Below are positions 15,816-44,764 of a stretch of DNA of 64,000 bases, one piece after another; position 1 is the stretch's first letter; the number at the start of each line of letters is the position of its first letter. The position numbers were made by a program, and so were the translations under genes. Location of the stretch: the IMG/VR virus record IMGVR_UViG_3300047491_000255, positions 32,001 through 96,000 of that record; one strand, given 5' to 3'. The stretch is from a virus. Its lineage: Duplodnaviria; Caudoviricetes. The notes beneath the pieces are model-generated. The model made no database searches. It saw nothing but the letters and a program-made list of their open reading frames with translations, and was not told the origin of the DNA.

Positions 15816-16279
15816 TGATTAGTCCTTTCTAACAATACATCCCAGACAGGAGATAGTGCAACACGATACGTTAATAATTTTACTTGTATCTCAATTGGTT
15901 GTTCTGACACTAACCCCATCGCCGTAGACCAATCAGAAGGCACTGGTCCAATATTAAGACTTGCCCATAAAGCAGAGAATTTGGAAATCATATCGGCATA
16001 TGGAATAAGCGGATCGGCCTCCACCATGGGCGCGGCAGGAACCGGGCGCGGCACGATGAGCGCGTCCGTGATCGGGTCAACGGTCGGCTGGTCAACGTCG
16101 CCCTCGATGAGGTACTCGTACCATCCCTCGGCCTGCCGCTCCGCCACCGGTTGCCTCGCCATGAATGCGGAGAAGTTCCCGCGCACCAACCCACCATACT
16201 CGCATTGATTCTCCGGTATGCTGGCCGAGTCCGTGATTGTCCCGTCTGCGTTCAGTCTGTACATTATTGAGTCCTCCAT
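15812..16279 (-). CDS. Fibre-associated/chaperone-like hypothetical protein
   Basis: 155 aa directly after fibre-like genes; ERQAEGWY motif. Confidence 0.55.
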   Translation of the reverse strand: MEDSIMYRLNADGTITDSASIPENQCEYGGLVRGNFSAFMARQPVAERQAEGWYEYLIEGDVDQPTVDPITDALIVPRPVPAAPMVEADPLIPYADMISKFSALWASLNIGPVPSDWSTAMGLVSEQPIEIQVKLLTYRVALSPVWDVLLERTNQ

Positions 16280-17326
16280 TTACTTCCAGTTCGCACTCAT
16301 CGTGGCGTATCCCGGCACGTTCGTTGATGAGGCAAACGTATTGATATCATTCGTTGGCGTCAGCACAGTATGGATCACATTCGTGCCCCAAAAAACCTGA
16401 CCGCCCCACAGTGGCATGTTTCTCCATGCACTGTCCAACGATCCAACGATGTTTCCGCCAGTCATTGAGATGTTCGTGGGAATCTGGAAATCTCCTGACG
16501 TTATTTTTGCCATTCCGTTGCAGGCGTAGTAGTACGCACCCACCGCTAGCGGTCCGGTCATATTGATGGCGCTCAAAAATCCGTCAGGCAGTGGGCCGGT
16601 CACGTTGGACATATTGTTGCAGGCGTTGTTAAACATGTTCGCCGCTGTCGGCCCGGTTAGCCTCGACGTGTCCATAAATCCGGCGGGCAGTGGGCCTGTC
16701 ACGTTTACCATGCCGTAGCAGGTGTAAGCTAACATGCCTGACCCTGGTGGCCCGGTTAGTGCCGAAGTATCCATGAATCCGTCAGGCAGTGGCCCGACCA
16801 AGCCAGACATGTTGATGAAGGATGCTAAAAACATACCTGCCGTCGGCGTTCCGGTAATTTTCCGAAACGGATTTGTCCGCATAGCAGTAACCCGCGGGTT
16901 GCTGGAAAAAATCGCTCTGTACGCATTCACCGCCGTAGCCGCGTAGTCGAGAGTCCCCGAAAACTCGCATGTGTAGGTCGGACTCGTGAGCGAGGTGTGG
17001 AACATGTTTTGATATGCACCGCTTGCATTTCTCCAGTCGCCACGGAACTTGATGTAACGCCCGCGCATCGTAATCGTGTTGCTCGTGTACGCCGTCCACA
17101 CGCCATTGCCCGCGTCGTATAGAGCCTGCGACGGTGTGGCCGGTCCCGCGTATGCCTCGCCGACGCCCAGCGAGAGCGTCGTTGGCGGAGTACCGGAAAC
17201 AAAGGTGATTGTGAAATGGGTGTCGCCACCCAGCTTCCCAAGCGGGTCAATCCTGCTCGGGATCCCCGCCCAGACCGCCGCCGCCGCCAGCGACATCGCG
17301 CAAAGTGTCAGTGTGAGTGTTCTCAT
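16280..17326 (-). CDS. Repeat-containing adhesin-like protein with signal-peptide-like N-terminus
   Basis: Start re-set to MRTLTLTLCAMSLAAAAVWA; three to four repeats of M.NVTGPLP.GF.DTS.LTGP (LRR-like solenoid). Confidence 0.7.
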   Translation of the reverse strand: MRTLTLTLCAMSLAAAAVWAGIPSRIDPLGKLGGDTHFTITFVSGTPPTTLSLGVGEAYAGPATPSQALYDAGNGVWTAYTSNTITMRGRYIKFRGDWRNASGAYQNMFHTSLTSPTYTCEFSGTLDYAATAVNAYRAIFSSNPRVTAMRTNPFRKITGTPTAGMFLASFINMSGLVGPLPDGFMDTSALTGPPGSGMLAYTCYGMVNVTGPLPAGFMDTSRLTGPTAANMFNNACNNMSNVTGPLPDGFLSAINMTGPLAVGAYYYACNGMAKITSGDFQIPTNISMTGGNIVGSLDSAWRNMPLWGGQVFWGTNVIHTVLTPTNDINTFASSTNVPGYATMSANWK

Positions 17327-17327
17327 G

Positions 17328-19733
17328 TTAGAACGAGTCCCATTGATTGCAGATGATGTTCGTCTTGCCCAAGCTGCAGATGTATGCCTGCCAATTCGCC
17401 CGCAGCAGTTGGTTAGAGCGCGTCGTCGAGACCGTCGGCGTGGACAAGTAACGCAACGTCGCATTCGTCGCCGGGTACGCGAAACTCACGTTCGTATGAG
17501 CGACCGTAATCATGGTTGACCAATCCGCTACCTGCGTGCCGATGTTGAGCCCGGACAGGTCGAAGGCCAGCACGCTGGTCAAATTGGTCACGGTCAGCCG
17601 ATAGATTCTGTTGGTCGGCACAACCGCAATCGTGTTCGTGATCCCCGCCGCCGTCGCCTGCGTGATCGTCGGCGTGTACACGCGCTCGGTCGTCGGCATG
17701 GATTCCGCCGCGCTCGCAAGCCATGCCGCAAATATCGGATCGCTCTCCCCGCTACCGCTCGCCCCGCCGCCCGCCGTCCCCAACGGCTGCCCGCGCCGGT
17801 CATAAATCCAGTACGTCCGGCCGGCCGCATCACTCCGCACCACGATGCGGGCAATGCGGATTGTCATCCCTTGCATGTAAACCGGTACGCCTGTGTTATC
17901 GTAACTGCTGGCGTCCGCGATACAGTTGGCCAGCCGAGTCGAAGCAGGACCAGCCGTGTAACTCGCGCTCGAAAGATTGAGCATCAGGCGCGTCGATTTC
18001 GGCGTGATTCCGCTCTCCACAAAGGCAAACACATTGATCGCGTGACAATCCCCGACCGACCCGAACATCGCCGCGCCGCTCGGCAGTGCCGTCAGAGCGT
18101 TCAGATTCGTGATTGCCCGGAACCCCGACGCCGAGTTGAGCACCCACATCATTGTCCGATTCGTGTTGGCTGGAATCGTGTGGCTGTGCATTTGCCAACC
18201 CACGCCATCGGTCGTCGTGAGGTAAGCGTCCGTCACGCTGGAGTTGGTCGTCGAGACAGAAGCCTGGACGCCGCTCTCCCATATCGCCGGAAGCCGTCGC
18301 ACCCGCTCCCCGATCCACGACACGCGCCCCAGCCCGCGCCGGTTCTCCACATTCTCCGTCCAGCTCCTAATCGCGTAGCCATTGCCAGCCACGATGCTGT
18401 TGGTGTCCATCAGGAAAATCTCGAACATCATTGCGCGCGCATCCGCCGCCGTGCCGCTGGTCAAGTACGGATAGCTCGTGTAATTCGTAATCGTCCCGTT
18501 CGGCAAGGCGCACACATAGTTGAGCGCAGGAGTGTTCGTAGTCCCCGCCGTCAGCCGCACCACCACGCTGGTGCCGTACTGCACAATTGATTGACCGAAC
18601 CAGTATTCAATCTGGCCGGCTGGCGACGGCGTAACGGTCGCATACGGGCCTGTTGCATCAACCGCCAGCGACAAGACCGGATCGCGCACAGACAGCCCGT
18701 TGACCAAACCGAGGAAGTTGTTGGTGGACACCTTGCCCGCCAGCGCGTCGGCCAGCCCGGTCACGCCAGCAATAGGCACGTTGGACACTCCTGCGCCTCC
18801 CCCGATAAATTGGTTGGCGTAGACAGGCAACCGCACAACCGGTCTGCCGTTCCACGTCGCACCCCATCCAGTGGCGGTCGGGTTGGTGACGTAGTTGGTA
18901 ATGCTGGGATTAGCTAAATCGAAAACATTAAGTGCTTCTGTTGGTGCGTTCCCTGAGAAGTACATTGATCCCATGTCCTGGCACTGATAGAACGCATACG
19001 TCCCAACCGAAGTGACATTAGGCATAGGGTCAAATCTTACATCCCCGCAATAGCCAAACGCATAGCCTCCAATGGTCGTGACGTTAGGGAATTTTGCATC
19101 CGCCAGCTTTATGCAGCTTTGAAATGCTTGGTCTCCAATTGTCGTAACATTGGGGAGCGCAATCCACAATAACTCAGAACACCAAGTAAATGCTCTGAAT
19201 GAGATTGACCTGATATTCCCACCACCAGTTACACGCGTGATTACAGCGTTGAGTTCAAATATATTCCCGAACCCAGTCACCGGCAACCCATCCAACATAT
19301 CAGGAATCACCACCTCATTCGGACCGGTATATCCTGTCAGCGTCACTTCCGTATCTGTCTTGGTCCACGTCCAGTTGGTTGCGCTTGATGGATTCTGCCA
19401 TGCGGTCGCAACCTTGCTCGTCTCTGCCGCCGAAACGTGCAGCGTCCCCGCGCCTTCTATGCCAGACAGCGAGCCGTGCGGGATTCCGTTCGTCGCGGCG
19501 TTAATCGCAGAGGTTATCCAGCTAGGGATTGGATTGGTAGCCTCAATCACATAATTTGTCGAGGCAAGACCATTGGTAATTGATTGAGTTACCTCAAAAT
19601 GATTAGAGACGGTTCCAATCAACACTTTTCGAGCCAATACGGTTCCAAAACTGTTCGTCACATCAGCGGCCAATACAGGCCACACAAAAGCCAATACTGA
19701 GGTTATGACCAATGCTTTAAATGAGAATCTCAT
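17328..19733 (-). CDS. Fibre/adhesin-like protein with BspA-type leucine-rich repeats
   Basis: Start MRFSFKALVITSVLAFVWPVLAA (ATGA overlap with upstream gene); repeats LPNVTTIGDQAF, FPNVTTIGGYAF, MPNVTSVGTYAF. Confidence 0.8.
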   Translation of the reverse strand: MRFSFKALVITSVLAFVWPVLAADVTNSFGTVLARKVLIGTVSNHFEVTQSITNGLASTNYVIEATNPIPSWITSAINAATNGIPHGSLSGIEGAGTLHVSAAETSKVATAWQNPSSATNWTWTKTDTEVTLTGYTGPNEVVIPDMLDGLPVTGFGNIFELNAVITRVTGGGNIRSISFRAFTWCSELLWIALPNVTTIGDQAFQSCIKLADAKFPNVTTIGGYAFGYCGDVRFDPMPNVTSVGTYAFYQCQDMGSMYFSGNAPTEALNVFDLANPSITNYVTNPTATGWGATWNGRPVVRLPVYANQFIGGGAGVSNVPIAGVTGLADALAGKVSTNNFLGLVNGLSVRDPVLSLAVDATGPYATVTPSPAGQIEYWFGQSIVQYGTSVVVRLTAGTTNTPALNYVCALPNGTITNYTSYPYLTSGTAADARAMMFEIFLMDTNSIVAGNGYAIRSWTENVENRRGLGRVSWIGERVRRLPAIWESGVQASVSTTNSSVTDAYLTTTDGVGWQMHSHTIPANTNRTMMWVLNSASGFRAITNLNALTALPSGAAMFGSVGDCHAINVFAFVESGITPKSTRLMLNLSSASYTAGPASTRLANCIADASSYDNTGVPVYMQGMTIRIARIVVRSDAAGRTYWIYDRRGQPLGTAGGGASGSGESDPIFAAWLASAAESMPTTERVYTPTITQATAAGITNTIAVVPTNRIYRLTVTNLTSVLAFDLSGLNIGTQVADWSTMITVAHTNVSFAYPATNATLRYLSTPTVSTTRSNQLLRANWQAYICSLGKTNIICNQWDSF

Positions 19734-20020
19734 AGCCTTCCTCTCATCCTTCGAGCCGACTTGATCCCAAGCACACCGTCTGCAATCTTCTCCACTTGCA
19801 CGTCCTGTATCTTCCCTCTTATCCTGCGAAATACATCTAGACGATCTTCTGATCCACAACGCACGACTACATCATAGCCTCCTCCAAGAGGATGATGTAT
19901 CCCATCAGATACGATAAAACCATCACGCATCACCGTGGCAACCTCACGGCGAATCTCTTGAATCAAAGCAGCCGACATCATCAGATTGCCGATCTCCTCT
20001 ACCTCTCTTCCAAAATCCAT
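19730..20020 (-). CDS. Hypothetical protein
   Basis: 96-aa ORF coupled to next gene. Confidence 0.65.
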   Translation of the reverse strand: MDFGREVEEIGNLMMSAALIQEIRREVATVMRDGFIVSDGIHHPLGGGYDVVVRCGSEDRLDVFRRIRGKIQDVQVEKIADGVLGIKSARRMRGRL

Positions 20021-20466: not shown

Positions 20467-21270
20467 TCATACTCCACCAATTCGATTACTTTTCCATCCC
20501 CTTAGCCTGCCTGACAAGAAAGGAACTCCATGTGCTCCTCTTGAACCCCCAAGACCACGAATTGAATTGAAATAAAAAGATGTAGGCGGTGACAGGTAAT
20601 TCCCGCATTTGAATTTTGGGTTGTCCATCGCCTTTTCTGCCCTCTGTTCTGCATTTTGTTTGAGCGTCGTAAGCTGACTGGCAATATCCCCTCCACCACC
20701 CTCCATCTCATTAGGACCTATGGCAAATACCAAACGATACCTCCATAAGTCATAATCCAACAAGAGCTTCTCCATGCACATGGCATATGCCAAGTCAACA
20801 ATCACACCTTCCCAATTCGTCGGTGCTGAATCCACTGTATAACTCGTTGCTGGTCCTACTGCTGTCGAATTGATGACACTTACAGCCGCCGTAATAAAAC
20901 CTTCAAAAACTGGCTGAGTGAAGTAATCAAAAACATATGACGCTTCCACCGTGTCTCTAGACGCCCTCTGTCCATCCAAGTCCGGCGTTCCCGCCTTGAA
21001 TGTCCCATAAGTATAGTTTATATCTGTGACATCAGTTGTCATGTCCAACATCATGCCATTCTTACGAAGTGTCAGATTAGCACCTTGAAGCCAATTCCCG
21101 AAAGTGGTGTACCAAGTAACCCGATCCGGCTTGAGATTGCACGGCTCATCATCAATATGAATCTGACGAAAAGCCATAAGACGAGGCGTCATCAAGTCAT
21201 CAACGAGATGACTAAACTTCGCCGTCGTCCCTAACCCTGTTGGAATGAATGTTCCGGGGAATGTCGACAT
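20467..21270 (-). CDS. Neck/adaptor-like structural protein
   Basis: 267 aa; C-terminal helical part (WEGVIVDLAYA...DIASQLTTLKQ) resembles neck proteins. Confidence 0.5.
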   Translation of the reverse strand: MSTFPGTFIPTGLGTTAKFSHLVDDLMTPRLMAFRQIHIDDEPCNLKPDRVTWYTTFGNWLQGANLTLRKNGMMLDMTTDVTDINYTYGTFKAGTPDLDGQRASRDTVEASYVFDYFTQPVFEGFITAAVSVINSTAVGPATSYTVDSAPTNWEGVIVDLAYAMCMEKLLLDYDLWRYRLVFAIGPNEMEGGGGDIASQLTTLKQNAEQRAEKAMDNPKFKCGNYLSPPTSFYFNSIRGLGGSRGAHGVPFLSGRLRGWKSNRIGGV

Positions 21271-21271
21271 A

Positions 21272-22042
21272 TCAACTCCTGAAATCGCACTCGAACATCC
21301 ACTCGCCAGTCTGTGCCTCTTCCGGCTTCACAATAGCCAGCTTGGTATCCCCAACACAGAAGGCTTCCAGCGTAATCACCAACTCCGTGCCGTACTGAAG
21401 TGCCAATTCCTTTGCAGCCGCAAGAACCTGTCCCTGCGTCTCATACCTTTCTCGATACTTCGGATCACGGTCAATCGGCATATCACGATCAAAACCCCAC
21501 CGACGTTCCAAGACAAATCGTTTCTCAACAGGCCCCTTCCGTATCGGAAACTTCTCGATTGTCACCCGCTTTGCCTTCTTCGGTTCCCGAATCACTTTCT
21601 TCCGAATAACCGCTCTCAATGATCCTGATCCACCCCCATAGCCTTCCCCGTGCCCATACTCCCGCTCATCCTCTGCCAAGGCATTCTTCAGGGCTTCCTG
21701 CTCTGTCCAGCCTGTCCCACGAATTGTCCGAGTGTCCGTTCCAGACAACACCGACTTCGCCAATCTCAAAATGTCTTGGATTTCTCTCTTGGCTAGAAGA
21801 CTCTTGGCAACTTTCAGGATTTCAGATGACTCTCTTCTACGCAACCTCTTCTGAATCATACGGCGTTTCTCAACTTTATCTCGCTCTGTCTTTTGGAAAT
21901 TGTCGTCTTTTTGATGTTTCAGAGCTTTCCACTCATCATCTTCCATCAATGGGAGTCCACTCCCTGAAACTTCCAGAGCAACTCTGTCTGCAATCATATC
22001 CTCTCGACTATTCATTGCGACCATCCTTCCTCTCTCCATCAC
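21272..22042 (-). CDS. Hypothetical protein
   Basis: 256 aa with two copies of the IL..AKS.L helix. Confidence 0.7.
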   Translation of the reverse strand: MMERGRMVAMNSREDMIADRVALEVSGSGLPLMEDDEWKALKHQKDDNFQKTERDKVEKRRMIQKRLRRRESSEILKVAKSLLAKREIQDILRLAKSVLSGTDTRTIRGTGWTEQEALKNALAEDEREYGHGEGYGGGSGSLRAVIRKKVIREPKKAKRVTIEKFPIRKGPVEKRFVLERRWGFDRDMPIDRDPKYRERYETQGQVLAAAKELALQYGTELVITLEAFCVGDTKLAIVKPEEAQTGEWMFECDFRS

Positions 22043-22165
22043 TTCACTTCTCGAAGTGAAATTCCAGAATCATAACCATCGTGATTTATTAGCCCATCTG
22101 TATGAAACTCGTCGCCAACCAAAGGCGTTATTTGCCACGCCTTGCTATACGCCATCTGAACCTTC

Positions 22166-22399
22166 TTATCGTCTGATGTTGGCCGCTATGGAGTCACGCA
22201 GCGCGTTCACCTTGTCGAGCACGTCGCCGTATTCCTGTCCGGAGAACTCAGTGCGCCACATTTTCATGCCGACGACTTGACCGCCAGTGATGAGTCTCTC
22301 GCGTTTACGGGAGAATATCTTGTCGAGCGCGATTTCAAGATCGTCCAACAATGTGCCGGAGGGTACGACGGCCCCGGCGCCCGTGTTTGGTGTAGTCAT
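22166..22399 (-). CDS. Cassette-borne hypothetical protein
   Basis: MTTPNTGAG...AANIRR; ATG lies inside attC 22343-22441 and overlaps the upstream stop (ATGA). Confidence 0.65.
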   Translation of the reverse strand: MTTPNTGAGAVVPSGTLLDDLEIALDKIFSRKRERLITGGQVVGMKMWRTEFSGQEYGDVLDKVNALRDSIAANIRR

Positions 22400-22441
22400 G
22401 CGTCCTTTCCGGGGCCGTCGCCCCTCAGCACCGTGTTCGGC
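22343..22441 (+). mobile_element. attC-like recombination site
   Basis: R'' GTCCAAC ... R' GTTCGGC with internal inverted arms cgacggccccgg/ccggggccgtcg. Confidence 0.7.
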
Positions 22442-22677
22442 CTTAATACCCACCCTGCAAACCACGTATTCCGCCGCCATGACCACTCCAGCCCTATCGA
22501 CCGCATAGGCCAACCGTAATGCTGGTCGTGACCACCGTGCGTTTCGTCAACGCAGAGCAGACCGTATTTCTTGGCAATGTGCGAACCTACGCAGGCCACA
22601 CGGAAACGCCATGAGGCCGAACAAGGCTCGGGAGGGTAAGCCTCACCCGTGGTTGTCTTGCAATCGTCAGCTTTCAT
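22396..22677 (-). CDS. Cassette-borne hypothetical protein
   Basis: MKADDCKTT...LRPNTVLRGDGPGKDA; RBS GGAGG and ATG inside attC 22616-22706. Confidence 0.6.
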   Translation of the reverse strand: MKADDCKTTTGEAYPPEPCSASWRFRVACVGSHIAKKYGLLCVDETHGGHDQHYGWPMRSIGLEWSWRRNTWFAGWVLRPNTVLRGDGPGKDA

Positions 22678-22706
22678 TTCGGCTACCCTCCGCTTTGGTG
22701 TTGTAA
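22616..22706 (+). mobile_element. attC-like recombination site
   Basis: R'' GCCGAAC, arms ggagggtaagcc/ggctaccctcc, R' GTTGTAA; R'' is the exact complement of GTTCGGC that opens this cassette. Confidence 0.7.
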
Positions 22707-23079
22707 ACCGCCACTCCATCCTCAAATGACTTCAATGAGTAACGGCCTATGATACCGTTGAAGTTCCTTTACCAAAATCTTTGCATCCTTCATGTCCTTC
22801 AACCGAACCGCTACCTTTGCCGAAGTAACGAACCTTGATCCACGATACTTCCCTAAGCTGATTTCGACGGATACGACATCATGCCCTCTACCAATAAGGT
22901 CTTTTATCAGCATTTTATTTAAAGAATCACGGGCTGATTGTTCAAGACCATCCTTGTAATCTCTATCCTTCTCCCTTAAATTAGAAAAGACAGCATCGAA
23001 GATCAAATCTTCTTGCTGCCCTTTTGCGAAAAAACTGAAAGGCTACTTTCGCAGCCATGCTGTCTAATCTGTCTATCAC
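22700..23079 (-). pseudogene. Frameshifted gene interrupted at its 3' end by cassettes
   Basis: GTG at 23079 with RBS; reads VIDRLDSMAAKVA / FAKGQQEDLIFDA...QRY / GRYSLKSFEDGVAVYN across two single-base shifts. Confidence 0.5.
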
Positions 23080-23121
23080 TGGCACCTCTATTTATGTGCC
23101 AAGTATCAGATATTTATTACA

Positions 23122-23394
23122 TCAGCAGTAGCAAATTTGCTTGAGGCTTCTCAAATGATCTACGAAGACACGAGCCTTGACTGTTCCTGTTCCTCCAAAA
23201 TACATTGCCTTTGTCCTAGCAAGGTCCTGGTCAGGAAGAGCAAACACGAAGACAACCTTCTTGCCTCCATCCGGCGTATTGGAAGTTTCTGTTGTCTTCA
23301 ACTGGAAATCGAGGCTGCAGAGGAATGCTGCGAAATACAGATCGGATGTACGATACAATCTGATAGTCGCAGGAGAACTATTTACTTCATTCAT
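23122..23394 (-). CDS. DUF5659-like small protein
   Basis: YRTSDLYFAAFL...KVVFVF motif recalled from this phage family. Confidence 0.6.
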   Translation of the reverse strand: MNEVNSSPATIRLYRTSDLYFAAFLCSLDFQLKTTETSNTPDGGKKVVFVFALPDQDLARTKAMYFGGTGTVKARVFVDHLRSLKQICYC

Positions 23395-23407
23395 GCAGCC
23401 TTCTCCT

Positions 23408-23701
23408 TCATTTTACTTCTCGAACATCGCCGTTACCGTGATCGTAGGCTGCCAGGCGGACTGGAGCCTTTCGACCCTTTTGTCTATAAGCGGCTTTCGA
23501 GTTTTTAGCCTTCATCTCTTCTCCAAATTTAGACGAACGAATAAAATCTCCGCCTACCTTTACGGAGAGACTCAGCCCTTCATAGATACGGTTTGCCGTG
23601 CCTTTACATGAAGGACAGGGAGTAACCCGTGGTGCTTTACCAATCGGGTACTCCCCATCAAACCGTTTCCCGCATTTCTTGCATTGAAATGGAAACTGCA
23701 T
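23408..23701 (-). CDS. FmdB-like zinc ribbon protein
   Basis: FQCKKCG...CPSCKG with RIY following. Confidence 0.75.
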   Translation of the reverse strand: MQFPFQCKKCGKRFDGEYPIGKAPRVTPCPSCKGTANRIYEGLSLSVKVGGDFIRSSKFGEEMKAKNSKAAYRQKGRKAPVRLAAYDHGNGDVREVK

Positions 23702-23718
23702 GAATTACTCCCCCGTGA

Positions 23719-24681
23719 TTACCGGCATTCCTCGCCCAAACTCTTCGGCGGACGACCACGACGTGGTGCATCAACCTTTGGAGCCGTTTGAGCACTCAAC
23801 ATCTTCTCCAAACGGTCCAAACGAGCCTTCAGAGCCTCGTTTTCAGCCTTTAGACCCTCGTTCTGGGATACCATAGTGGACTGTTCAGAAGCCTCACCAA
23901 TGTCCTCGGGAGCCTCGCCATCGCCTTCTACGACACGAGCACCTACTTGGTCATCCCCTTCGACTACGGCTCTGCCTCTGAGCTTTGCAGATTCCTTCTT
24001 TCGGGTATCGGCCAACGCCTTAGCGTCTTCTTTCTTGGCATCAGCTTCTTCTCTGGAAGGAAGGTGTTGTCCGGCATTCATAGACATATGAGCTTTGCCG
24101 ACGAAACCAGCACCTAGATTATCATCTTTGACGACAGCCATCTTTACCGAACCAGTCGCCTTCAGACGAGCCCTCTCTGCGATGGAGCCAATATCCGTCT
24201 TACCCTTCAGACTCTCCAGACGATCTTCGACTGACTCATCGCCACGGATGATTTCCATGCCGTCAGTCTTGACCTTGGCTCTGGCAGCTTCCTTGGCCAG
24301 AGAGTTGATTTTCGACACCTTCGTTGCACTGATGTCAATTTCCTCATTGAGGTCCTGATCGGACTTGATAACCTGCATCTGCTGATCAGGCTTAAGAATC
24401 TTCTGCTGACTCACCGGCTTGGGACGAATTGCCTCAACGACTTCCGCTTTCGCCTCTTCGGAATAAGGAATCACCCAAGGATTATTCGGGAAGTTTTGAG
24501 AATGACGTTTCAGAACATCCAAGTCACGGGTATCATTGAAACGCCGACCGTCAATAATGAGCCTGCCATTAGACTCATCCAGTTCGATGACTGCTCCTGC
24601 TCGGAATGTTTCCTTGCAGTATCCAAAGTGAAGTTCCTTGACTGTCAGAATCCACTTCTCATTCGCTACTGTAGTAGCCAT
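23719..24681 (-). CDS. Hypothetical protein with C-terminal coiled coil and AT-hook-like motif
   Basis: GGAGG RBS before ATG 24681; PRRGRPPK near C-terminus. Confidence 0.7.
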   Translation of the reverse strand: MATTVANEKWILTVKELHFGYCKETFRAGAVIELDESNGRLIIDGRRFNDTRDLDVLKRHSQNFPNNPWVIPYSEEAKAEVVEAIRPKPVSQQKILKPDQQMQVIKSDQDLNEEIDISATKVSKINSLAKEAARAKVKTDGMEIIRGDESVEDRLESLKGKTDIGSIAERARLKATGSVKMAVVKDDNLGAGFVGKAHMSMNAGQHLPSREEADAKKEDAKALADTRKKESAKLRGRAVVEGDDQVGARVVEGDGEAPEDIGEASEQSTMVSQNEGLKAENEALKARLDRLEKMLSAQTAPKVDAPRRGRPPKSLGEECR

Positions 24682-26275: not shown

Positions 26276-28030
26276 CTACTTCACGGTCCACTTCTCACGA
26301 ACCTGCTCCACTGTCGGCAGAGCAACCGTTCCTCCAATGCCCTCGGCTTGAAGCATCATAGAGAAAATCTTCTCACTGAAGCCTCCAACTTGATTGACAT
26401 GATCCCCGGCATCAACCGGAGCATCGCCGTACCCGTTAAGGTGAACGAGGTGGAGCCAAGTCTCAGCCGCAGCCTTACTTGACTTCCTGTACTTCGCCCA
26501 TGCATCTGCAAACGGCTGACCACCACCATTTTGACAATCGACCCACATCTGGCAGTCTGTCAGGATGATTACCCGTGCCGGAGTCTTACCCGAATTGATC
26601 AGGTGTTCAATGCACAAATGACCATTCGTTCCACCCCCATTACCAGACTTCTTCACCTTCTCACAGACGCCCATAACGGTATTCGTCTTGGCGAAGCGAA
26701 CCTCCTTCACATTCGTTCCGAAAGAGAATAAATATGCCCTCTCGCACGCCTTGGCTGCGATTCCCGCAAGCATGTTCGCTGCATCACGACAGTCACGAGC
26801 CGACCTCTCAGACAGAGTGTTACTCGTCATTGAACCAGAGTTATCAGCAAACAGCATGGTCTCACCCGGAATAACCGGGATATTGTAACATGACTCGTTT
26901 GCGGCTAGTTCAATAGCTGCCTCGACCTCCGATAAGTCTGCAAGATCGAATTCGCCAGACATCCCATCCAGTGCCGTCTTCGCAGACAGGAACCTGAACG
27001 GCAGTTGCTTCGACTTCACAACCTCGTCCTTGTTCGAGAGCTTGTCCGACACCTTCTGAATGACATCCTTGGAAACCTTCGCCTCTATGATGTTCCGCAG
27101 GTTACGAAGAAGAGCCATGTAACCGACCAGACCATTGTTGATCAGGAACGACCACACCGCATTCTTCTCCTTGCCGAATTGAGACAGCAAGACCTCCCAA
27201 TTGACCTGTGACTTCTTCGCCAGATCACGAGCCTCATCGTCAAACACCGTCTTCTTCGCCAACTCCTTACGAGCGGCGATGATCGGAGTCTTTGCAGGGT
27301 CATCGATCTTCCCGGTGATGAAATACTTGGCAACCTCACCATTCAAAGGCCAACCAGCCTTACGAGGAAGCCAGCAAAGCACGTCCTTCCAAGTCGGGAA
27401 GCCAGTGTCGTCATACTTCATCAGTCCACGCTCACCGAACTTACCCACCGCATCAGACAGACCGGTAGCCAAACTATTCGGCAGATTCTTCAGTCCGAAC
27501 AGAAACCGATGAACCAGCAAACAGGTCTTCACCTCGTCCGGACGCTTCACGATGTACGGAGCGTACTTCCGTACCAAAGGCTTCGTGCCATCAACATGAG
27601 AGGCCAACACCAATAAGACCTGCGGGGTCAAACGGATGTTCATCTCGTTACGAAGCCAGTTGGCGATAGCCAGAATGTCCTCGGGAGTCTTACCCCGTGC
27701 AACATCCAAAGCCGTAGAAATCACCTCACGGGCAGTTTCCGGGAGCTCATCACAGGTGATAAAGCCCTTCAGCTTGCCATCCACGATCTCCAGCCTCTCG
27801 GCCAGCTTATCGAACTTGCCACCAGTCCCACGCTTCGGCACACAGACCGCAGCATTATAGAACTTCGGCTCTGCGAAAAACGAACCACCAGTCATGGTGA
27901 TGAGCTTCAACGCCGGGTCAGAGACCTCAAACGCCACTCCACCTGCCCGGTTGACCGTAACAGTCTTTGCGTTGCTCGGCAGACGTGCCGCCGCAGCCCT
28001 CTTCCTCGCTACCGTCTTGAACGTGCTCAT
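26276..28030 (-). CDS. rsr: Ro60/Rsr-like TROVE + vWA domain RNA-binding protein
   Basis: NRAGGVAF start, LRNEMNIR, RPDE, YMALLRNLRNI, SKQLPFRFLSA TROVE motifs; DNSGSM MIDAS, GGTN and ILTDCQ in vWA; AAGGAGG RBS before ATG 28030. Confidence 0.93.
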   Translation of the reverse strand: MSTFKTVARKRAAAARLPSNAKTVTVNRAGGVAFEVSDPALKLITMTGGSFFAEPKFYNAAVCVPKRGTGGKFDKLAERLEIVDGKLKGFITCDELPETAREVISTALDVARGKTPEDILAIANWLRNEMNIRLTPQVLLVLASHVDGTKPLVRKYAPYIVKRPDEVKTCLLVHRFLFGLKNLPNSLATGLSDAVGKFGERGLMKYDDTGFPTWKDVLCWLPRKAGWPLNGEVAKYFITGKIDDPAKTPIIAARKELAKKTVFDDEARDLAKKSQVNWEVLLSQFGKEKNAVWSFLINNGLVGYMALLRNLRNIIEAKVSKDVIQKVSDKLSNKDEVVKSKQLPFRFLSAKTALDGMSGEFDLADLSEVEAAIELAANESCYNIPVIPGETMLFADNSGSMTSNTLSERSARDCRDAANMLAGIAAKACERAYLFSFGTNVKEVRFAKTNTVMGVCEKVKKSGNGGGTNGHLCIEHLINSGKTPARVIILTDCQMWVDCQNGGGQPFADAWAKYRKSSKAAAETWLHLVHLNGYGDAPVDAGDHVNQVGGFSEKIFSMMLQAEGIGGTVALPTVEQVREKWTVK

Positions 28031-28357: not shown

Positions 28358-28453
28358 TCTTGTGAACTAATCAAACTCCAATAGTCGCATTGAGAACGCT
28401 GTCTTTTCTATAGAAGTATCTCAACACTGAAGGAGTTTGATTAGTTCACAAGA
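28358..28453 (-). ncRNA. Candidate Y-like RNA 2 (96-nt stem-loop)
   Basis: Perfect 22-bp inverted repeat, then TTCA/GACTATT internal loop and a second stem; same loop motif as RNA 1. Confidence 0.55.
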
Positions 28454-28931: not shown

Positions 28932-29223
28932 GTCGGGCTTTCATGCACCCGATGAGAGGTTTCGGACTAAGCCTACTTCCAGCAGATTGTTACGTCACTT
29001 CTTTATACTCGGTTGGCAACCAGAACAATCAACAGTTTCGCCGACGATTACCGAGTTGAACATCGCTCCTACCTTGCAGCAGCTAGGCAACCTGCATCAT
29101 CGAGCGGAATACCGATGTCCATCTATCCACTCGTCATCATTACATTACCAGATTCCTTCCAGAATACAATAAAAAATTTTTGGTGACCTCTCCCTCCCGT
29201 CAAGCAGTACCAGAAGCATCTGG

Positions 29224-29421
29224 CTACTTTAGCCCTAAGTTGGGTGTATCGTCGTCCGCAAAGAAAACGTCATGGCATTCCCACGCTGGAGGCCCGCAGT
29301 GGTAGCAGTTGGTTTTAGGATCGTCTGGGTCTTGGTTCCTGTCGGAACACGTCTTGCATGGGTCAGGAACACCCAGCAAGGCGTCCGATGCTACCTTCAT
29401 CTGCTCGATTCGCTCACTCAT
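29224..29421 (-). CDS. Cassette-borne Cys-rich hypothetical protein
   Basis: CKTC...CYHC; starts in attC 29371-29447. Confidence 0.6.
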   Translation of the reverse strand: MSERIEQMKVASDALLGVPDPCKTCSDRNQDPDDPKTNCYHCGPPAWECHDVFFADDDTPNLGLK

Positions 29422-29447
29422 TTCGGAGCCTCAACCTTGTGTTCTGT
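29371..29447 (+). mobile_element. attC-like site A (degenerate R'')
   Basis: ACCCAGC ... agcctcaac ... GTTCTGT; near copy of site D core. Confidence 0.6.
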
Positions 29448-29635
29448 ATGTACTCTTCGAGATACGCTTGGCAGATTCGACGCATTTCCATCCAAGACTG
29501 GCGGCCTGCCTTGCGACCGTACATGAGCCGTAGTTGCACGTTCGGAGGCGCGGCCAAGAACATGCGTTGATATGGGTGCAGAACCATTTGCTCCTCCGTA
29601 TGCCGGGGAGTGGCAGGCGTTTCAGGTGCGGTCAT
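29414..29635 (-). CDS. Cassette-borne hypothetical protein
   Basis: MTAPETPA...EYIQNTRLRLRNE; GAGGAG RBS inside attC B. Confidence 0.55.
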   Translation of the reverse strand: MTAPETPATPRHTEEQMVLHPYQRMFLAAPPNVQLRLMYGRKAGRQSWMEMRRICQAYLEEYIQNTRLRLRNE

Positions 29636-29680
29636 TTCGGTTCTCCTCGCTCCCCGGAAACGGAGAGCACGGTGTTCGGC
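29578..29680 (+). mobile_element. attC-like site B
   Basis: GCAGAAC; gctc(c)tccgt/acggagagc with extra C; ccggggag/ctccccgg; GTTCGGC. Confidence 0.8.
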
Positions 29681-29685
29681 GCTAC

Positions 29686-29871
29686 TCATTTCGGCATCAC
29701 TCGCAATTCGGACCACAGTGCGTCCCAATAGGTCGCCTTCGGTCCGCTGGTGAACTTGTTGAACGCCCTCGCCTCTAAATAGGGCTGCATGAGCAACAAC
29801 AGCGACGGCCCGACAACCAGCAGCGCAAGCACGATGAATACAAAACTTATCTTCACATCTTCCTTGTTCAT
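29686..29871 (-). CDS. Cassette-borne small membrane protein
   Basis: 61 aa with long hydrophobic helix; AAAGG RBS. Confidence 0.65.
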   Translation of the reverse strand: MNKEDVKISFVFIVLALLVVGPSLLLLMQPYLEARAFNKFTSGPKATYWDALWSELRVMPK

Positions 29872-29894
29872 CGTCGTTTCCTTTCAAAGCGGAG

Positions 29895-29952
29895 CGCCAA
29901 CAAGGCGCTCCAGTTGACTCACTTCGCTTGCAACTGAGTTTTGTCGTTCGGC
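29895..29952 (+). mobile_element. attC-like site C
   Basis: CGCCAAC; gctc(c)agttg/caactgagt with extra C; GTTCGGC; 58 bp. Confidence 0.85.
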
Positions 29953-30146
29953 GTCACGAGTACTTGCGTGACCTTGCCACGTCCTTCCGCCTCGGCACGC
30001 TTGTAGTGGTCTGGCGAGCACATGCGGACGACCAACTCAGACGGGTACAGGTGGCGATATTCGCTTTTCTCGGCGTCCCACCACGCCCACAGAACCGCCG
30101 AACCAGGCGTTTGAGGGCTACCTTCATTCTTCGCTTCGCTCGTCAT
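29919..30146 (-). CDS. Cassette-borne hypothetical protein
   Basis: 75 aa; starts in attC D, stops in attC C. Confidence 0.65.
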   Translation of the reverse strand: MTSEAKNEGSPQTPGSAVLWAWWDAEKSEYRHLYPSELVVRMCSPDHYKRAEAEGRGKVTQVLVTPNDKTQLQAK

Positions 30147-30173
30147 TTCGGAGCCTCAACTCTCTCGTAGGGC
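30097..30173 (+). mobile_element. attC-like site D (R' GTA variant)
   Basis: GCCGAAC; gtttgagggct/agcctcaac; GTAGGGC. Confidence 0.75.
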
Positions 30174-30430
30174 GAAACCACGACGCGCTCAGTACGCTCG
30201 ATGATCCGATGCCGATACGTTTCGCCATGTCCGCGATTTGTTTCACATTCATGTCTCAGTTTGTGAATAGCTTCTTGCAGCGCCTTGCACTCTGGGATGT
30301 CCGGGTCGGCATACCATCCATCGCGGCAGTCGGGTCTTGCCTCTTGGACGACGAATCGCCGAACCAAGCGGTCCAGCGGATGAGCGCCAACGGCGTCATT
30401 CGCAAATGGTGGCTTTGTGGTGGCGCTCAT
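30143..30430 (-). CDS. Cassette-borne hypothetical protein
   Basis: 95 aa; ATGA overlaps at both ends, each inside an attC. Confidence 0.65.
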   Translation of the reverse strand: MSATTKPPFANDAVGAHPLDRLVRRFVVQEARPDCRDGWYADPDIPECKALQEAIHKLRHECETNRGHGETYRHRIIERTERVVVSPYERVEAPK

Positions 30431-30451
30431 CGCTGACCTTTCTCGTTCGGC
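30358..30451 (+). mobile_element. attC-like site E
   Basis: GCCGAAC; ggtc(c)agcg(g)atgagcgcca/tggcgctcatcgctgacc with two extrahelical bases; GTTCGGC. Confidence 0.88.
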
Positions 30452-30651
30452 AACTCAATGCACGCGCCTATGGCGTTCCCGCCTGGTGTCGGAAACGTGT
30501 CGCCGCAAAACCACTTCCACCCGTCTCGGATTCGCGTCCAGTGCCCACCGTTGAAGGCGTGCGCTTTGGTGCCAATCGGGTAGTCGTTCCAGTCACGATC
30601 CTTCCACAGTCTGGCCGAACCAGACGGTTGAAAAAATTCACTACCGCTCAA
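30427..30651 (-). CDS. Cassette-borne Trp-rich hypothetical protein
   Basis: 74 aa; AGGAGGT RBS; carries GCCGAAC (30614-30620) complementary to the cassette start. Confidence 0.65.
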   Translation of the reverse strand: MSGSEFFQPSGSARLWKDRDWNDYPIGTKAHAFNGGHWTRIRDGWKWFCGDTFPTPGGNAIGACIELPNEKGQR

Positions 30652-30672
30652 TGCTTACCTCCTTGTTCTCAA

Positions 30673-30891
30673 TCATAGCCACAGCCGCACCGCCTTTCCG
30701 TGTCTCGGATGCTGTTCATTGACTCGCACAGTTTCAACGGTTGTCTCGAATACGTTTGGCACGCCGCAGGTCATATTCGAGTCTTGATCTGGCAATGTGC
30801 TACCAGTACAGGTCACTTCGATGTTCCCGTGTTCTTTGCGGACGCGCCGCAGTTCTTCGATCAGTTGGTCAATCTTCATGCTGTCCTCCAT
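30673..30891 (-). CDS. Hypothetical protein
   Basis: MKIDQLIEELRRVRKEHGNIEV, a common small phage protein pattern. Confidence 0.65.
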   Translation of the reverse strand: MEDSMKIDQLIEELRRVRKEHGNIEVTCTGSTLPDQDSNMTCGVPNVFETTVETVRVNEQHPRHGKAVRLWL

Positions 30892-30909
30892 TTGTTGCGA
30901 ACAACCGCG

Positions 30910-31242
30910 TCACTCTTCCACCTGGTACATCGTCTTCCCGTTGCTTTGCATGCGCATTTCAACGACCCCCGCGCCCATTACCGCGATGTACTCGCGGCCG
31001 GTGTCCACGTCGCGCAGCACAAGGATGTCGCGGCTATGCCCTTCAGCGTCGTTGATGACCTGAGCAGACGTGACGTTGAACCTTCCGCTCTGCTCGGCCT
31101 TCAGCTTCTCGTTGCTCACTGGCGTCGGGTCGGAACACCCGGCCAACAAGGCGCTGGTAACTACGGCGATAGTACACCCGGTAAACAAGGCGCTGGTAAC
31201 TACGGCGATAGTACACCCAGCAAACGTGATTCTCCTGTTCAT
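30910..31242 (-). CDS. Putative lipoprotein in cassette array
   Basis: Signal with LLAGC lipobox; 13-aa duplication in the signal region. Confidence 0.65.
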   Translation of the reverse strand: MNRRITFAGCTIAVVTSALFTGCTIAVVTSALLAGCSDPTPVSNEKLKAEQSGRFNVTSAQVINDAEGHSRDILVLRDVDTGREYIAVMGAGVVEMRMQSNGKTMYQVEE

Positions 31243-31290
31243 GCGTTCCTTTCTGGCGTCTGCCGCCGAGTTTCAGCTTTGTCGTTACAG
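31141..31290 (+). mobile_element. attC-like site with internal 39-bp duplication
   Basis: GGCCAAC; gctggtaactacggcg/cgccgagtttcagc; GTTACAG. Confidence 0.65.
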
Positions 31291-31374
31291 ATCGAGCCTT
31301 CCGTCCGCTTGTTAGCGGGGTCATAGTGGAAAACCTAGCGTACAGACCTTTCGGCCACTCCCGCAGGTAAATCA

Positions 31375-31925
31375 AATGACTGTCTCTCCAGCCTGTCACC
31401 GATCTCCTTTATCTCGACTGGCTACCTTACAGTGCTACGGTCGCCGTCACCAGTCAAAGTCCGATTTCCACAGACGCCCTTTCAGGTCGAACACGACTGA
31501 CGGAATACCTTTTCAGTCTTTGGGAGCTTTTCATTCCCGTTTCCGTCATCGGGTTCGGGACAATCGATTTCCCCTCTAGGGAAATCGACTACCTCCCCAC
31601 CATCCAATCATCGGGATTCTCTGCTATATTCGTTTTAGGTTCGTATTGATAAAGACCAGCATATCCTTCCCGATTTCGTGAGCCATTAGCGACCTCTTCT
31701 ACCTAACTAATCTCAGGAAGGGATCATCTCCCCCCTGATTTAGCTTCGACCTGCTCACAGGCGGGCTTGGAACCGCCTTGCCGCATTACTGGCCCGACAT
31801 TGCCTCTTCCGGGTGTTACTCCGGACGTACAGTCGGCCAGTCCTCTGCGATTACTGACAACCAATAAGGTGTCAGTCACCTCAAGATTAAAAACTGGCAG
31901 GACGGATTCTCGCCGTCGCACTTGT
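31375..31925 (-). ncRNA. Unclassified structured RNA region (one or more RNAs)
   Basis: No credible ORF; series of stems, e.g. TAATCTTGAGG/CCTGAGATTA, ATCGGGA/TCCCGAT, TCGATTTCCC/GGGAAATCGA, TGACGGAA/TTCCGTCA. Confidence 0.55.
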
Positions 31926-32054
31926 CTCCCTCATCCTCATCCGCCTCCAAAAAACAGCCTTTTATTTGAGAAGCCATTAACTTAGAGGTCTTACTGATGT
32001 TTTTTGAGATCATCGACTCTTTTTTTATTTTGCCCAAGAGGACGAACCTCCATG

Positions 32055-35752: not shown

Positions 35753-36005
35753 TCTTATGATCTCCTCCATTAAGGGAAGAAATATCAATAAAAAATGACA
35801 ATTAGCGCAGATTATGATCTTGCGGTAATCATCTACCCTTGGGTCCGCACTTCTTGAAGTGATCCGGCGGAACCTTCTCTGTTGAACGATGTTGCCCGTT
35901 TGGATGCCAGAATCAGAGCTTCACGACAAGTGCGGGCAACTGCCATGACGAGTTTCGAATCCCTGTCAAGACCATCATTAGGACCGATCTGTTAATATGC
36001 TGCCT

Positions 36006-36908
36006 TCATGCTGCAATTCCATTCGCTTTGGCTGTTTCATACCAATCAATTTGTCCGACCTTAGCCAGGACACGGCAATAATTGCCGGCTACCGCCAGAA
36101 CTAAACTCTTGACAGCCCCGGTGTAATCCGTGCTCCACTTCTTCAGACACTCATCGCCATGAGGCAGCATGGTCCTCTTAGAGCGACGATTGACGCTGAC
36201 GACATTGCCCTCTTTCTCTTCAAAACCAGGAAGAAACTTCACAACCGGGCACTTGCCATCTTCGGCCAACTTGGCGATTTTCTCAACCAGACCCTTCGAC
36301 GCACGAGCCGCCAACTGATTCCAGCGAGTTTCATCTCCCAGCGGCTGCACTACCATCGGCTCAAACGGCGAGTTGCGAACAGCAACCTCAGCGATCTTCT
36401 TGAGGTCAGACAAATTGTGGTTGACCGCAATCGTCGTATTGATATTCAGCCAGTCCGTCCAACCATTCGCCGTTCCACCACTCACATTGAACGTCACCTT
36501 GACGCCGTTGATCTCTGCAGGGATGTAGGAGTATCCCTTTTCAGGAAGCATCTTGATAGCAGTCCGAGGAATCACGAAGTAGAAATCCATACCAGCTTTC
36601 GCCGTCCAGAACTTACTCCCACTACAGCGATAGTGTTTGAACTCATGGACCACCTTGCCGGAAGCAGCCACATTCGGATGGCTAAACCGAGCCGACGGCT
36701 TGTTGACAGTCGCCCCAGCCCGAACGATCAGATAGTCTCCCGGAGCAATCTCGATCTGATACTGCTCGCCAGGAGTGCCGTCCACGACCAACAGCGTCCC
36801 ACACTCACTCAGGAGCTTGGGTTCTGTCATCTTGACCCCGGTAGGGGGAGTAGATTTATCATTCGCATCAATCAGTTTTTGAATGTCGTTCATCATAGTG
36901 TCACCCAT
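36006..36908 (-). CDS. Hypothetical protein
   Basis: 300-aa ORF. Confidence 0.75.
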   Translation of the reverse strand: MGDTMMNDIQKLIDANDKSTPPTGVKMTEPKLLSECGTLLVVDGTPGEQYQIEIAPGDYLIVRAGATVNKPSARFSHPNVAASGKVVHEFKHYRCSGSKFWTAKAGMDFYFVIPRTAIKMLPEKGYSYIPAEINGVKVTFNVSGGTANGWTDWLNINTTIAVNHNLSDLKKIAEVAVRNSPFEPMVVQPLGDETRWNQLAARASKGLVEKIAKLAEDGKCPVVKFLPGFEEKEGNVVSVNRRSKRTMLPHGDECLKKWSTDYTGAVKSLVLAVAGNYCRVLAKVGQIDWYETAKANGIAA

Positions 36909-36911
36909 TCT

Positions 36912-37109
36912 TTACCGATAAAATCCAATGATCCACCACGCAGGACAAATCTCATACTTTCCTCCCGAAGCCTGTCGAAACAGATCGTCACAAGCGGCCT
37001 TCACATCAAACCACTGATCTTCCGGGATAACCTTGACAGCCTGTTCCTTGATTCCGTTAAGGAAATACCACACATCAATAAGATTTTCCATATCATCCCC
37101 TTCACCCAT
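36912..37109 (-). CDS. Hypothetical protein
   Basis: About 60 aa abutting next gene. Confidence 0.5.
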   Translation of the reverse strand: MGEGDDMENLIDVWYFLNGIKEQAVKVIPEDQWFDVKAACDDLFRQASGGKYEICPAWWIIGFYR

Positions 37110-41750: not shown

Positions 41751-42041
41751 TTGATTGTTCTCCATCTGACCAATGGTTAATACGCACATCCAGCACATCC
41801 GAATACAAGCCCATGATAGCCTCTTGGCGTCGCAACCTTCTCCGCCACTACACTCGCTTTATATGGTTTCACATCTGATCCTTTCTAATCTCTATTATAC
41901 GCCCGGAAACGGATTCTTATCCGCAAACAGCTAATATCTCTTATCGAGTACGATTTTCAGCTTTATCTATGAAACATTTGCTGCCTTCCCGATATTCTGC
42001 TCTTCTATCCAGTCTTGAACCGCCTGATATACACCCTTCTC

Positions 42042-42080
42042 AAAAAGAAAAGCCTCGGGAGTTCATCACTCCCGAGGCTT
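42042..42080 (-). terminator. Intrinsic terminator after major capsid gene
   Basis: AAGCCTCGGGAGT-loop-ACTCCCGAGGCTT then TTCTTTTT. Confidence 0.85.
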
Positions 42081-42105
42081 CCTTGCTTTCTATCGAACCG
42101 CGTGG

Positions 42106-42966: not shown

Positions 42967-42979
42967 GGTGATATCCTCC

Positions 42980-43474: not shown

Positions 43475-43560
43475 TCTTAATTCCCTCTTTCCTTTTTTGA
43501 TTCAACAAACGGCTATTACTTGTTTCAAACTCACGCCCCGTGAGGGGCGTGAGGCATTCA

Positions 43561-44736: not shown

Positions 44737-44764
44737 GTTTTCTATCCTCCTTGTGTGATACTTC

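Follow-up and report, generated by a model that had tools for sequence, protein, structure and literature searches.

A block of 522 bp, at positions 22179-22700 on the + strand of a 64,000-nucleotide stretch of DNA from a lake phage, is a genuine insert that interrupts a conserved phage gene within its final codons, as is confirmed by relatives in which the same site is empty. The block consists of two units which lie head to tail on one strand, and which each end, in the manner of an integron cassette, on a hairpin that resembles an attC site. The stretch, referred to below as the window, corresponds to positions 32,001 to 96,000 of IMG/VR virus record IMGVR_UViG_3300047491_000255 (Duplodnaviria; Caudoviricetes), a record of 124.8 kb which is estimated to be ~50% complete. 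Taken together, the observations are best read as an integron-type, site-specific insertion of two cassettes at a secondary site, a reading to which we attach a probability of about 0.6 and in which the enzyme is a presumed rather than an observed component. The orientation of the genes within the two units is the most interesting part of the system, and it is there that an earlier interpretation of this DNA, the first-pass annotation, needs amending.

A two-unit insertion in a conserved phage gene

The record has a GC (guanine plus cytosine) content of ~45%, with several GC-rich islands, and nearly all of its genes are on the minus strand. Against this composition the block is distinct, having a GC content of 0.57-0.605 in 200-nt windows versus 0.39-0.47 on both sides. 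Read along the minus strand, the sequence is ...GCG GTT TAC AAC, then the 522 bp, then ATC AGA CGA TAA, and removal of the block rejoins the two parts just as the first-pass annotation had described. The frame which that annotation gave for the join (AVYN-IRR-stop) is the ancestral one, the genes of the relatives ending in Y-N-I-R-stop, but it is not open in the window itself. Here, a one-base insertion near 22746-22748 shifts the frame by +1, such that the host gene now stops at 22722, 22 bases short of the block. As now read, the interrupted gene lies at 22722-23006 on the minus strand and encodes 94 amino acids; its ancestral 3' end follows the +1 frame to 22701 and continues from 22178 to 22166, the latter positions holding its displaced last codons (22166-22178, minus strand; ATC AGA CGA TAA plus the C of AAC). 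The one-base insertion in the window's version is supported by a depth of 60 in sequencing run X1 and is absent from the relatives (L002, two of two X4 contigs and one of one X5 contig).

The first-pass annotation had proposed a search for the empty site in related phages, and three relatives, namely L002, an X4 contig and an X5 contig, do indeed lack the block at the same base. L002, a viral contig, has the same neighbourhood as the window, including a neighbouring protein of 335 amino acids which is 64% identical. Its homologue of the gene at 23006-22722 is 138 amino acids long and ends ...TAT AAT ATC AGG TGA, with nothing between Asn and Ile. Logan contigs of four lake/freshwater runs were compared with 21200-23800; runs X4-X6 hold small shares of the stretch and have been used for bridges and breaks, not for habitat or abundance. 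Record 9 of X4, at 90-95% identity, fits rightwards from 22701, and its likeness to the window ends exactly at 22700|22701, beyond which 90 non-matching letters read on, on the minus strand, as Y-N-I-R-stop. In record 13 of X5, position 22701 is joined to 21991 via 49 other letters. A megablast search with 21200-23800 against 50,697 phage records gave no match.

The surroundings of the block are themselves variable among the relatives, both in an open reading frame (ORF) of 38 amino acids just downstream (22039-22155) and in the start of a gene of 256 amino acids. The 49 letters of the X5 relative stand in place of 21992-22700, and the X4 relative has 269 extra letters between 22033 and 22042. 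Further extra genes are present in L002 (5951-10066), between genes that are shared with the window; from a reading of their translations, these appear to be a zinc-ribbon ORF, two Cys-rich ORFs resembling HNH endonucleases and one ORF whose start resembles a GIY-YIG endonuclease. The same intergenic slots would therefore seem to be hot spots for different mobile genes across relatives.

The filled form is no chimera, since contigs of X1 bridge each junction: record 1 (21200-22374) spans the left junction at a depth of 65.8 and record 3 (22345-23297) the right junction at a depth of 60.2, each with 0 other letters. Moreover, runs X2 and X3, which come from another study, contain all sampled words of 21700-23200, and one of the two genes of the block (ORF B, below) is also present on a second contig, of 143,854 bp. 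It is the case that the Logan contigs of X1 break inside the first hairpin (22345-22374), where a lower-depth variant branches off, and that X1, X2 and X3 may be source samples, such that their support for the block is not fully independent. Given a bridging contig at each junction, however, an assembly chimera, or a population variant that never existed as one molecule, is scarcely credible.

Both junctions of the block carry TGTTG on the + strand (22176-22180 and 22698-22702), and the crossover can therefore be placed only to within 5 bases. Unit 1 (22179-22435, + strand) is of 257 bp, starts TTGGCC and ends on the G of the second G|TT. Unit 2 (22436-22700, + strand) is of 265 bp and starts TTCGGC, the preceding G completing GTTCGGC. 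The unit junctions are, in other words, G|TT on the + strand. An insertion at an AAC/GTT triplet had been claimed in the first-pass annotation, along with the more general statement that cassettes can insert at secondary GTT-like sites. The general statement agrees with work on attG sites, which are genomic sites with the consensus G|WT at which the integron integrase IntI inserts cassettes, and which are recombined double-stranded with no att-like structure (Loot et al., bioRxiv 10.1101/2022.09.11.507474). The particular claim agrees with the reconstructed site of the window, which is G|TT and fits G|WT; the empty sites of the relatives read A|TT, AAC and AAT being synonymous here. Because the relatives read ATT, the G of G|WT is undocumented for the ancestor of this lineage, which may nevertheless have had G.

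Cassette-like ends and attC-like hairpins

The ends of the two units bear the mark that is expected of cassettes. In unit 2, GTTCGGC (22435-22441) is the exact complement of GCCGAAC (22616-22622), at 7 of 7 bases, and in unit 1, GTTGGCC (22178-22184) pairs with GTCCAAC (22343-22349) at 6 of 7, both as claimed in the first-pass annotation. Such complementarity between the first bases of a unit and its own inner box is the trace of a circular cassette form, and it is found in both units. The two cases differ in weight. On both strands of the record, 68 of 4029 GTT sites (1.7%) have an exact 7-mer complement 100-300 nt downstream, whereas 611 of the 4029 (15%) have a complement of at least 6 of 7 bases, from which it follows that the 7/7 pair is unusual and that the 6/7 pair, taken alone, is not.

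Each unit ends on a hairpin. Hairpin 1 (22343-22441, + strand; 99 nt) has the inner box GTCCAAC, a perfect inner stem of 12 bp and the outer box G|TTCGGC. As DNA it folds with -29.2 and -29.9 kcal/mol on the two strands (z of -4.4 to -4.6, with 0 of 200 shuffles as good), and it contains two 2-against-1 loops, the extra base of which is on the 5' arm of the + strand. Hairpin 2 (22616-22706, + strand; 91 nt) is made up of the box GCCGAAC, a 6-nt spacer, an L helix of 12 bp, a 7-nt spacer and the outer box G|TTGTAA, which is chimeric in that its last six bases are phage DNA. The L helix pairs 22629-22642 with 22681-22692 and leaves two single bases bulged out on the + strand's 5' arm; it is also the minimum-free-energy helix of the minus strand, both as DNA and as RNA. 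Only this helix and an R helix of 3-4 bp form within hairpin 2.

Two properties of attC sites are thereby found in the block, the first being an imperfect palindrome (~55-140 nt) that folds as a single strand, and the second a spacer and L helix with extrahelical bases on the L'' arm. In attC sites generally, the consensus boxes are RYYYAAC and G|TTRRRY, extrahelical bases are located near L'', the bottom strand tends to fold more stably, and cleavage takes place in the AAC of the folded bottom strand (PMC5027507). Here, AAC and GTT are present at all sites, and GTCCAAC fits the consensus while GCCGAAC and GTTCGGC do not. The box sequences are, in addition, conserved between hairpins whose stem sequences differ.

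For comparison, 13 real attC sites were extracted from nine plasmid stretches with class 1 integrons, these being the sites of aadA1, aac(6')-Ib, OXA-101, qacF, cmlA5, arr-2, aadB, IMP-4, qacG2, catB3, qnrVC4, dfrA14 and dfrA27. In a walk along their folds, the real sites have an unpaired spacer, after which 10 of the 13 have pure single-base bulges on the top strand's 5' arm; pure 3'-arm bulges occur in none of the 13. In six of seven phage-type hairpins, it is the non-coding strand that has the extra bases on its 5' arm, which is equivalent to the 3' arm of the coding strand. A home-made rule scan, which takes the boxes, a spacer of 4-8 nt, an L helix of 10 pairs (8 for isolated real sites) and bulges on the 5' arm only, picked out 11 of the 13 real sites when the top strand was read and none of the 13 when the bottom strand was. 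Applied to the window, it matches 22616-22706, 29578-29680, 30358-30451 and 31486-31559, all on the + strand, and in L003, a metagenome contig of 1111 bp, it finds two sites on the non-coding strand and none on the coding strand. Its best matches are 29578-29680 and 30358-30451 (19 pairs each), followed by 74909-74978 (13 pairs), which has boxes unlike those of the family, and 22616-22706 (12 pairs). The phage-type hairpins have fold z-scores of -0.65 to -5.5, for the most part within the span from -1.3 to -8.3 that real sites cover; z-scores and strand stability were computed with the same script for 10 of the 13. In their L boxes, GAGGG...CCCTC, the phage-type hairpins resemble the sites of aac(6')-Ib, qacG2 and qnrVC4. 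From the G|TT junction and the position of the bulges, the + strand is equivalent to the top strand of an attC site, and the genes are accordingly on the bottom-like strand.

Two other candidates in the record were considered and rejected. An inverted repeat, GCCAAC...GTTGGC (22114-22183), might have been a third site, but its fold does not outdo shuffles (z of -1.2 and -1.9) and it lies in phage-type DNA. An exact match of 17 nt to the loop of hairpin 1, at genome positions 111614-111630 and so beyond the window, is inside an unrelated coding region and was judged to be due to chance.

Genes on the opposite strand and recurrence of the units

Each unit carries the start and body of one gene, in both cases on the minus strand. 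ORF A (22396-22677, minus strand; 93 amino acids) has its ATG in the loop of hairpin 2 and a Shine-Dalgarno sequence, GGAGGG, in the L helix. Its body ends ...R-P-N on the AAC box, and its last 12 codons and TGA come from unit 1. ORF B (22166-22399, minus strand; 77 amino acids) has an ATG which overlaps the TGA of ORF A, as ATGA, in the loop of hairpin 1; its body ends ...A-A-N on the AAC junction, and its last three codons and stop are the I-R-R-stop of the phage gene. The first 17-21 codons of each gene are the descending 3' arm of the hairpin and the box. The AAC box is always in frame as Asn, not only in this block but also in the array described below, in L003 and in the homologues. On the + strand, no ORF of at least 60 amino acids is confined to either unit. 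The arrangement of a canonical cassette, in which a promoterless coding sequence (CDS) on the top strand is followed by its attC, is therefore not what is found here; with genes on the bottom-like strand, which start in the hairpin loop and have no stop of their own, the units are not canonical cassettes.

ORF A and ORF B are judged from sequence comparison to be real genes, since HMMER finds homologues of both and, for ORF A, differences are concentrated at third codon positions. With ORF B as the query, an exhaustive search with HMMER gives eight proteins, which are ORF B's own, four small homologues (P0009, P0010, P0012 and P0013, 43-74% identity) and three long repeat proteins that were set aside as noise. 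Homologues of ORF A are P0016 and P0017, with 60-65% identity, and one encoded on L003. Between ORF A and the latter, over 92 codons, there are 33, 28 and 59 differences at codon positions 1, 2 and 3, respectively, a pattern which fits coding in the frame of ORF A. Pfam, PHROGs and PADLOC gave nothing above thresholds for the two ORFs, their neighbours and eight ORFs of the array. The predicted structures are poor, with a predicted local distance difference test (pLDDT) score of 42.6 for ORF A and of 58.4 for ORF B, the latter being two helices, and an Atlas search gave no usable match for either.

Beyond the block, the same units are found in other company. Record 2 of X1 contains an 89% identical copy of the body of unit 1 (22180-22374), at a depth of 6 versus 65, with a flank that differs to the left of 22180. 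P0009 is 74% identical to ORF B from the first residue to ...V-V-N and is unrelated beyond that point. In P0018, P0019, P0022, P0023 and P0024, one common leader and body are followed by four different tails directly after ...L-P-N; 20 of the 21 residues of this leader are identical to those of the leader of ORF A, whose own body is not related to theirs. Both hairpins also occur in X5 and X6, as diverged copies that are flanked left and right by other sequence. From where these recurrences break, it follows that the travelling unit, on the coding strand, comprises the 5' arm of the hairpin, the loop with its ribosome-binding site (RBS) and ATG, the 3' arm and the gene body up to AA|C. Each protein takes its tail from the neighbour downstream.

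When the record was scanned for AAC...GTT hairpins, two further ones with the same boxes were found in a different GC-rich island. The one at 30358-30451 (+ strand) has GCCGAAC...GTTCGGC, complementary at 7 of 7 bases, with spacers of 5 and 6 nt, the lengths that are canonical for real attC sites, two bulges and a folding energy of -27 kcal/mol; the other is at 29578-29680. They are part of an array (~29220-31600, minus strand, read from ~31.3 to 29.2 kb) of about eight ORFs of 61-110 amino acids with overlapping stops and starts, in which the leaders end in the GTTCGG box and the bodies end in P-N. To its hairpins can perhaps be added a third, at 31486-31559, and there are leader variants at ~30097-30175 and 29370-29450. 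Contig L003 is filled by four ORFs of the same build, and it was the one locus found in a search of metagenome contigs with A3. A search of IMG/VR viral contigs with P0003, A2, A3 and P0022 found no relatives. All known homologues are metagenomic, mostly on contigs of <1.5 kb, although the contigs that encode P0016 and P0022 are 23,386 bp and 36,823 bp long. As a separate feature of the array, its ORF of 110 amino acids (31242-30910) has a tandem duplication of ~42 nt at 31130-31225 (minus strand), within a signal-peptide-like start, such that C-T-I-A-V-V-T-S-A-L occurs twice.

This recurrence bears on an alternative explanation, in which the block would be an ordinary moron acquired through illegitimate or microhomology-mediated recombination, the AAC/GTT being incidental and the hairpins being only RNA structures for coupling. 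The five identical bases, TGTTG, at the two junctions would suit such joining, and the phage is a mosaic with many GC-rich islands. The hairpins are, moreover, very stable as RNA, with folds of -53.1 kcal/mol (22343-22442) and -45 kcal/mol (30358-30451) and 0 of 200 shuffles as good, and they enclose an RBS or start codon. However, the two junctions coincide exactly with box boundaries of the hairpin units, the 7/7 signature of a circle is present where one unit meets the other (p ~0.017), the same units recur elsewhere and are broken at the same boundaries, and the boxes are conserved where the stems are not. On balance a moron of this kind is improbable. Two other types of element were rejected. 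A group I/II intron or an intein does not fit, there being no Rfam match at E <= 1, whether to an intron or to a riboswitch, and two separate genes in the block. A single-strand transposon of the IS200/IS605 type, the marks of which are a Y1 (HUH) transposase, subterminal hairpins and insertion 3' of a fixed tetra- or pentanucleotide, was dismissed on the grounds that PF01797, the Y1 transposase family, has 0 matches in the record, that the hairpins are terminal and AAC/GTT-paired, and that the units swap partners at every hairpin; TTAC does adjoin the junction on the minus strand.

In the preferred reading, that of an integron-type insertion, a single circle holding both cassettes would have been released from a donor array, and its folded strand would have recombined with an attG-type secondary site in double-stranded form. 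Both units would then have entered together at G|TT (AA|C in the coding sense), four codons ahead of the phage gene's stop, so that both genes would run the same way as phage transcription. An integron integrase, or an enzyme closely analogous in function, would have been provided either by the host or by the unseen half of the phage. Along the + strand, each unit consists of TTxxxx, an antisense gene body, xxxxAAC, a spacer, a bulged L helix, a loop, the returning helix, a second spacer and G, and this order is that of an integron cassette with its attC site.

The placing of the genes within this layout has consequences for their translation. The RBS and ATG are placed in the hairpin loop, and the stop comes from the hairpin of the next unit, often as an ATGA overlap. 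With starts in a unit's own hairpin and stops supplied by the neighbour, any order of units would yield complete, translationally coupled small genes. The stable RNA hairpins that hold an RBS or start codon, together with the ATGA overlaps, point to a coupling in which ribosomes would open the hairpin while finishing the preceding gene; this suggests that each gene is translated by the ribosomes that are finishing the one before it. More tentatively, the units could belong to a distinct class of self-translating cassettes which circulates among freshwater phages and their hosts, possibly with a recombinase of its own. The hairpin would in such a class be at once the recombination site, the translation start and the terminator of the preceding gene, and the AAC would be kept as Asn. 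The genes would lie on the recombinogenic, bottom-like strand, and every reshuffling of the units would yield a functional operon with coupled translation.

The enzyme, points of conflict and known systems

The earlier claim of integrase-mediated acquisition of genes by the phage is borne out as regards the insertion, the cassette-like ends and the attC-like layout, but not as regards the integrase. Searches of the 124.8-kb record, ~50% complete, with PF00589 and TIGR02249 gave 0 matches at E <= 1, as PF01797 also gave none; in other words, the half of the genome that was searched contains no tyrosine recombinase, integron integrase or Y1 transposase. No complete integron, with intI and attI beside the array, is thus seen in the record, and the block is at most a CALIN-type cluster (a cluster of attC sites lacking an integron integrase).

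The lack of an enzyme in the record is one of a number of observations that weigh against an integron-type insertion. The others concern the target, the hairpins and the genes. As to the target, the empty site of the relatives has ATT in place of GTT, and the five bases common to the two junctions would also fit microhomology-mediated joining. As to the hairpins, GCCGAAC and GTTCGGC are off consensus at the fourth position, and hairpin 2 taken whole folds no better than shuffles (z of -0.05 to -0.65). The rule scan misses hairpin 1, and it has an appreciable background, with 16 matches on the + strand and 3 on the - strand of the record versus 4-13 per shuffled genome for both strands together. 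Furthermore, the bottom strand is the more stable in nine of ten real sites, whereas in six of seven phage-type hairpins the top strand is as stable or more so, by 0.3-2.4 kcal/mol. As to the genes, both CDS are on the strand opposite to that of canonical cassettes and overlap the attC-like site, an arrangement which is not described in the parts of the literature consulted. Finally, no homologue of either gene was found when 185,579 species genomes were scanned with A3 and A2, and for this reason there is no known donor integron.

Several of the same observations would be accommodated by a separate system, hairpin-directed, phage-adapted or of some other kind, that resembles integrons and has its own recombinase acting on the folded coding strand. 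The cassettes of such a system would carry their translation start in the hairpin and so would work wherever they land in a transcribed phage region. In this regard, genes that lie on the bottom-like strand and start in the loop are found in the two units here, in ~8 of the array and in four of L003, with the AAC box always in frame as Asn. The off-consensus boxes, the absence of the bottom-strand stability trend of real attC sites and the purely metagenomic occurrence of the homologues, outside the species genomes searched, point the same way. Yet no candidate recombinase for it is found in the record, and the geometry of spacers and bulges, the L-box motif (GAGGG...CCCTC) and the crossover at G|TT all match attC and IntI; phage attC clusters that are usable by IntI1 are, in addition, already documented (PMC9892861). 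A separate system is on this evidence rather unlikely, although a better candidate than a moron, and the action of an integron integrase or its analogue remains the preferred explanation.

Among the closest known counterparts is the insertion of integron cassettes at attG sites. Shared with it are units of a few hundred bp with an imperfect hairpin at the end, AAC...GTT boxes, an unpaired spacer and bulges on one arm; the unit start that complements its own inner box; the head-to-tail order of units on one strand; and the crossover, G|TT as reconstructed in the window, in a target which is otherwise without att-like features. What differs here is the bottom-like coding strand, with its start in the attC-like loop and a stop borrowed from the next unit, the fourth position of the boxes, which is off consensus, and the record, in which no integrase or attI is seen. 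Furthermore, the attG insertions are experimental ones in Escherichia coli, whereas the present one is natural and in a phage gene.

Virulent phages are known to carry attC sites in clusters that have no integrase and that IntI1 uses (Qi et al. 2023, PMC9892861). Like these clusters, the present block has attC-type sites with no nearby integrase, several of them on one strand, and a small, mostly unknown cargo. Unlike in that case, relatives here document the empty site, such that the event and its junctions can be read, and the coding strand is reversed relative to the putative site, the phage CALINs being oriented as bacterial arrays are. The translational arrangement is reminiscent of ORF-11 of attI1, which couples translationally to the cassette gene (PMC8876359, a review), in that a short upstream frame which ends at or near the next start drives the translation of a cassette. 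ORF-11, however, lies in attI1 and serves the first cassette only, whereas here each unit has start signals in its own hairpin and brings the gene before it to an end. A full-text literature search found no description of bottom-strand cassette genes that start in the hairpin loop and have an in-frame Asn junction, which does not disprove their existence elsewhere.

In T4-type phages, small novel genes flanked by repeated stem-loops, the promoter-stem-loop (PeSL) cassettes, are also found, and these stem-loops are thought to mediate shuffling. PeSL motifs are promoter-plus-terminator elements that are not known to have AAC/GTT boxes or the geometry of attC.

The insertion of cassettes at attG sites has been demonstrated in the laboratory, and attC clusters have been listed in a few phages. 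The block described here is a natural event that can be read base by base, with a filled site, three empty sites, a two-unit structure and copies in other contexts. If it was driven by an integrase, then phages can draw genes directly from the pool of cassettes, with nearly any G|TT as the target, and cassettes can be built to express themselves through coupling to the gene at the landing site. If the cassettes are indeed self-translating, they would be silent in a classical integron read from its Pc promoter and active in a phage transcription unit. Were the reversed coding strand, the start in the loop and the in-frame Asn junction general, the calling of cassette genes would change, since such genes would escape annotation pipelines that expect the CDS to precede attC on one and the same strand.

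Some further features of the window were observed in passing. Other GC-rich islands, of 0.52-0.61 GC in 1-kb windows, are at 16000-19900, 42000-45000, 2000-3000, 27000-28000 and 36000-37000, and an ORF of 843 amino acids (17328-19859) sits in one of them. At 28361-28450 there is an AT-rich, near-perfect palindrome of 90 nt with perfect outer arms of 19 bp, TGTGAAC...GTTCACA, which folds with -22 kcal/mol as DNA. It is unlike the GC-rich hairpins in composition and might serve as a terminator, as an origin or as a site of protein binding.

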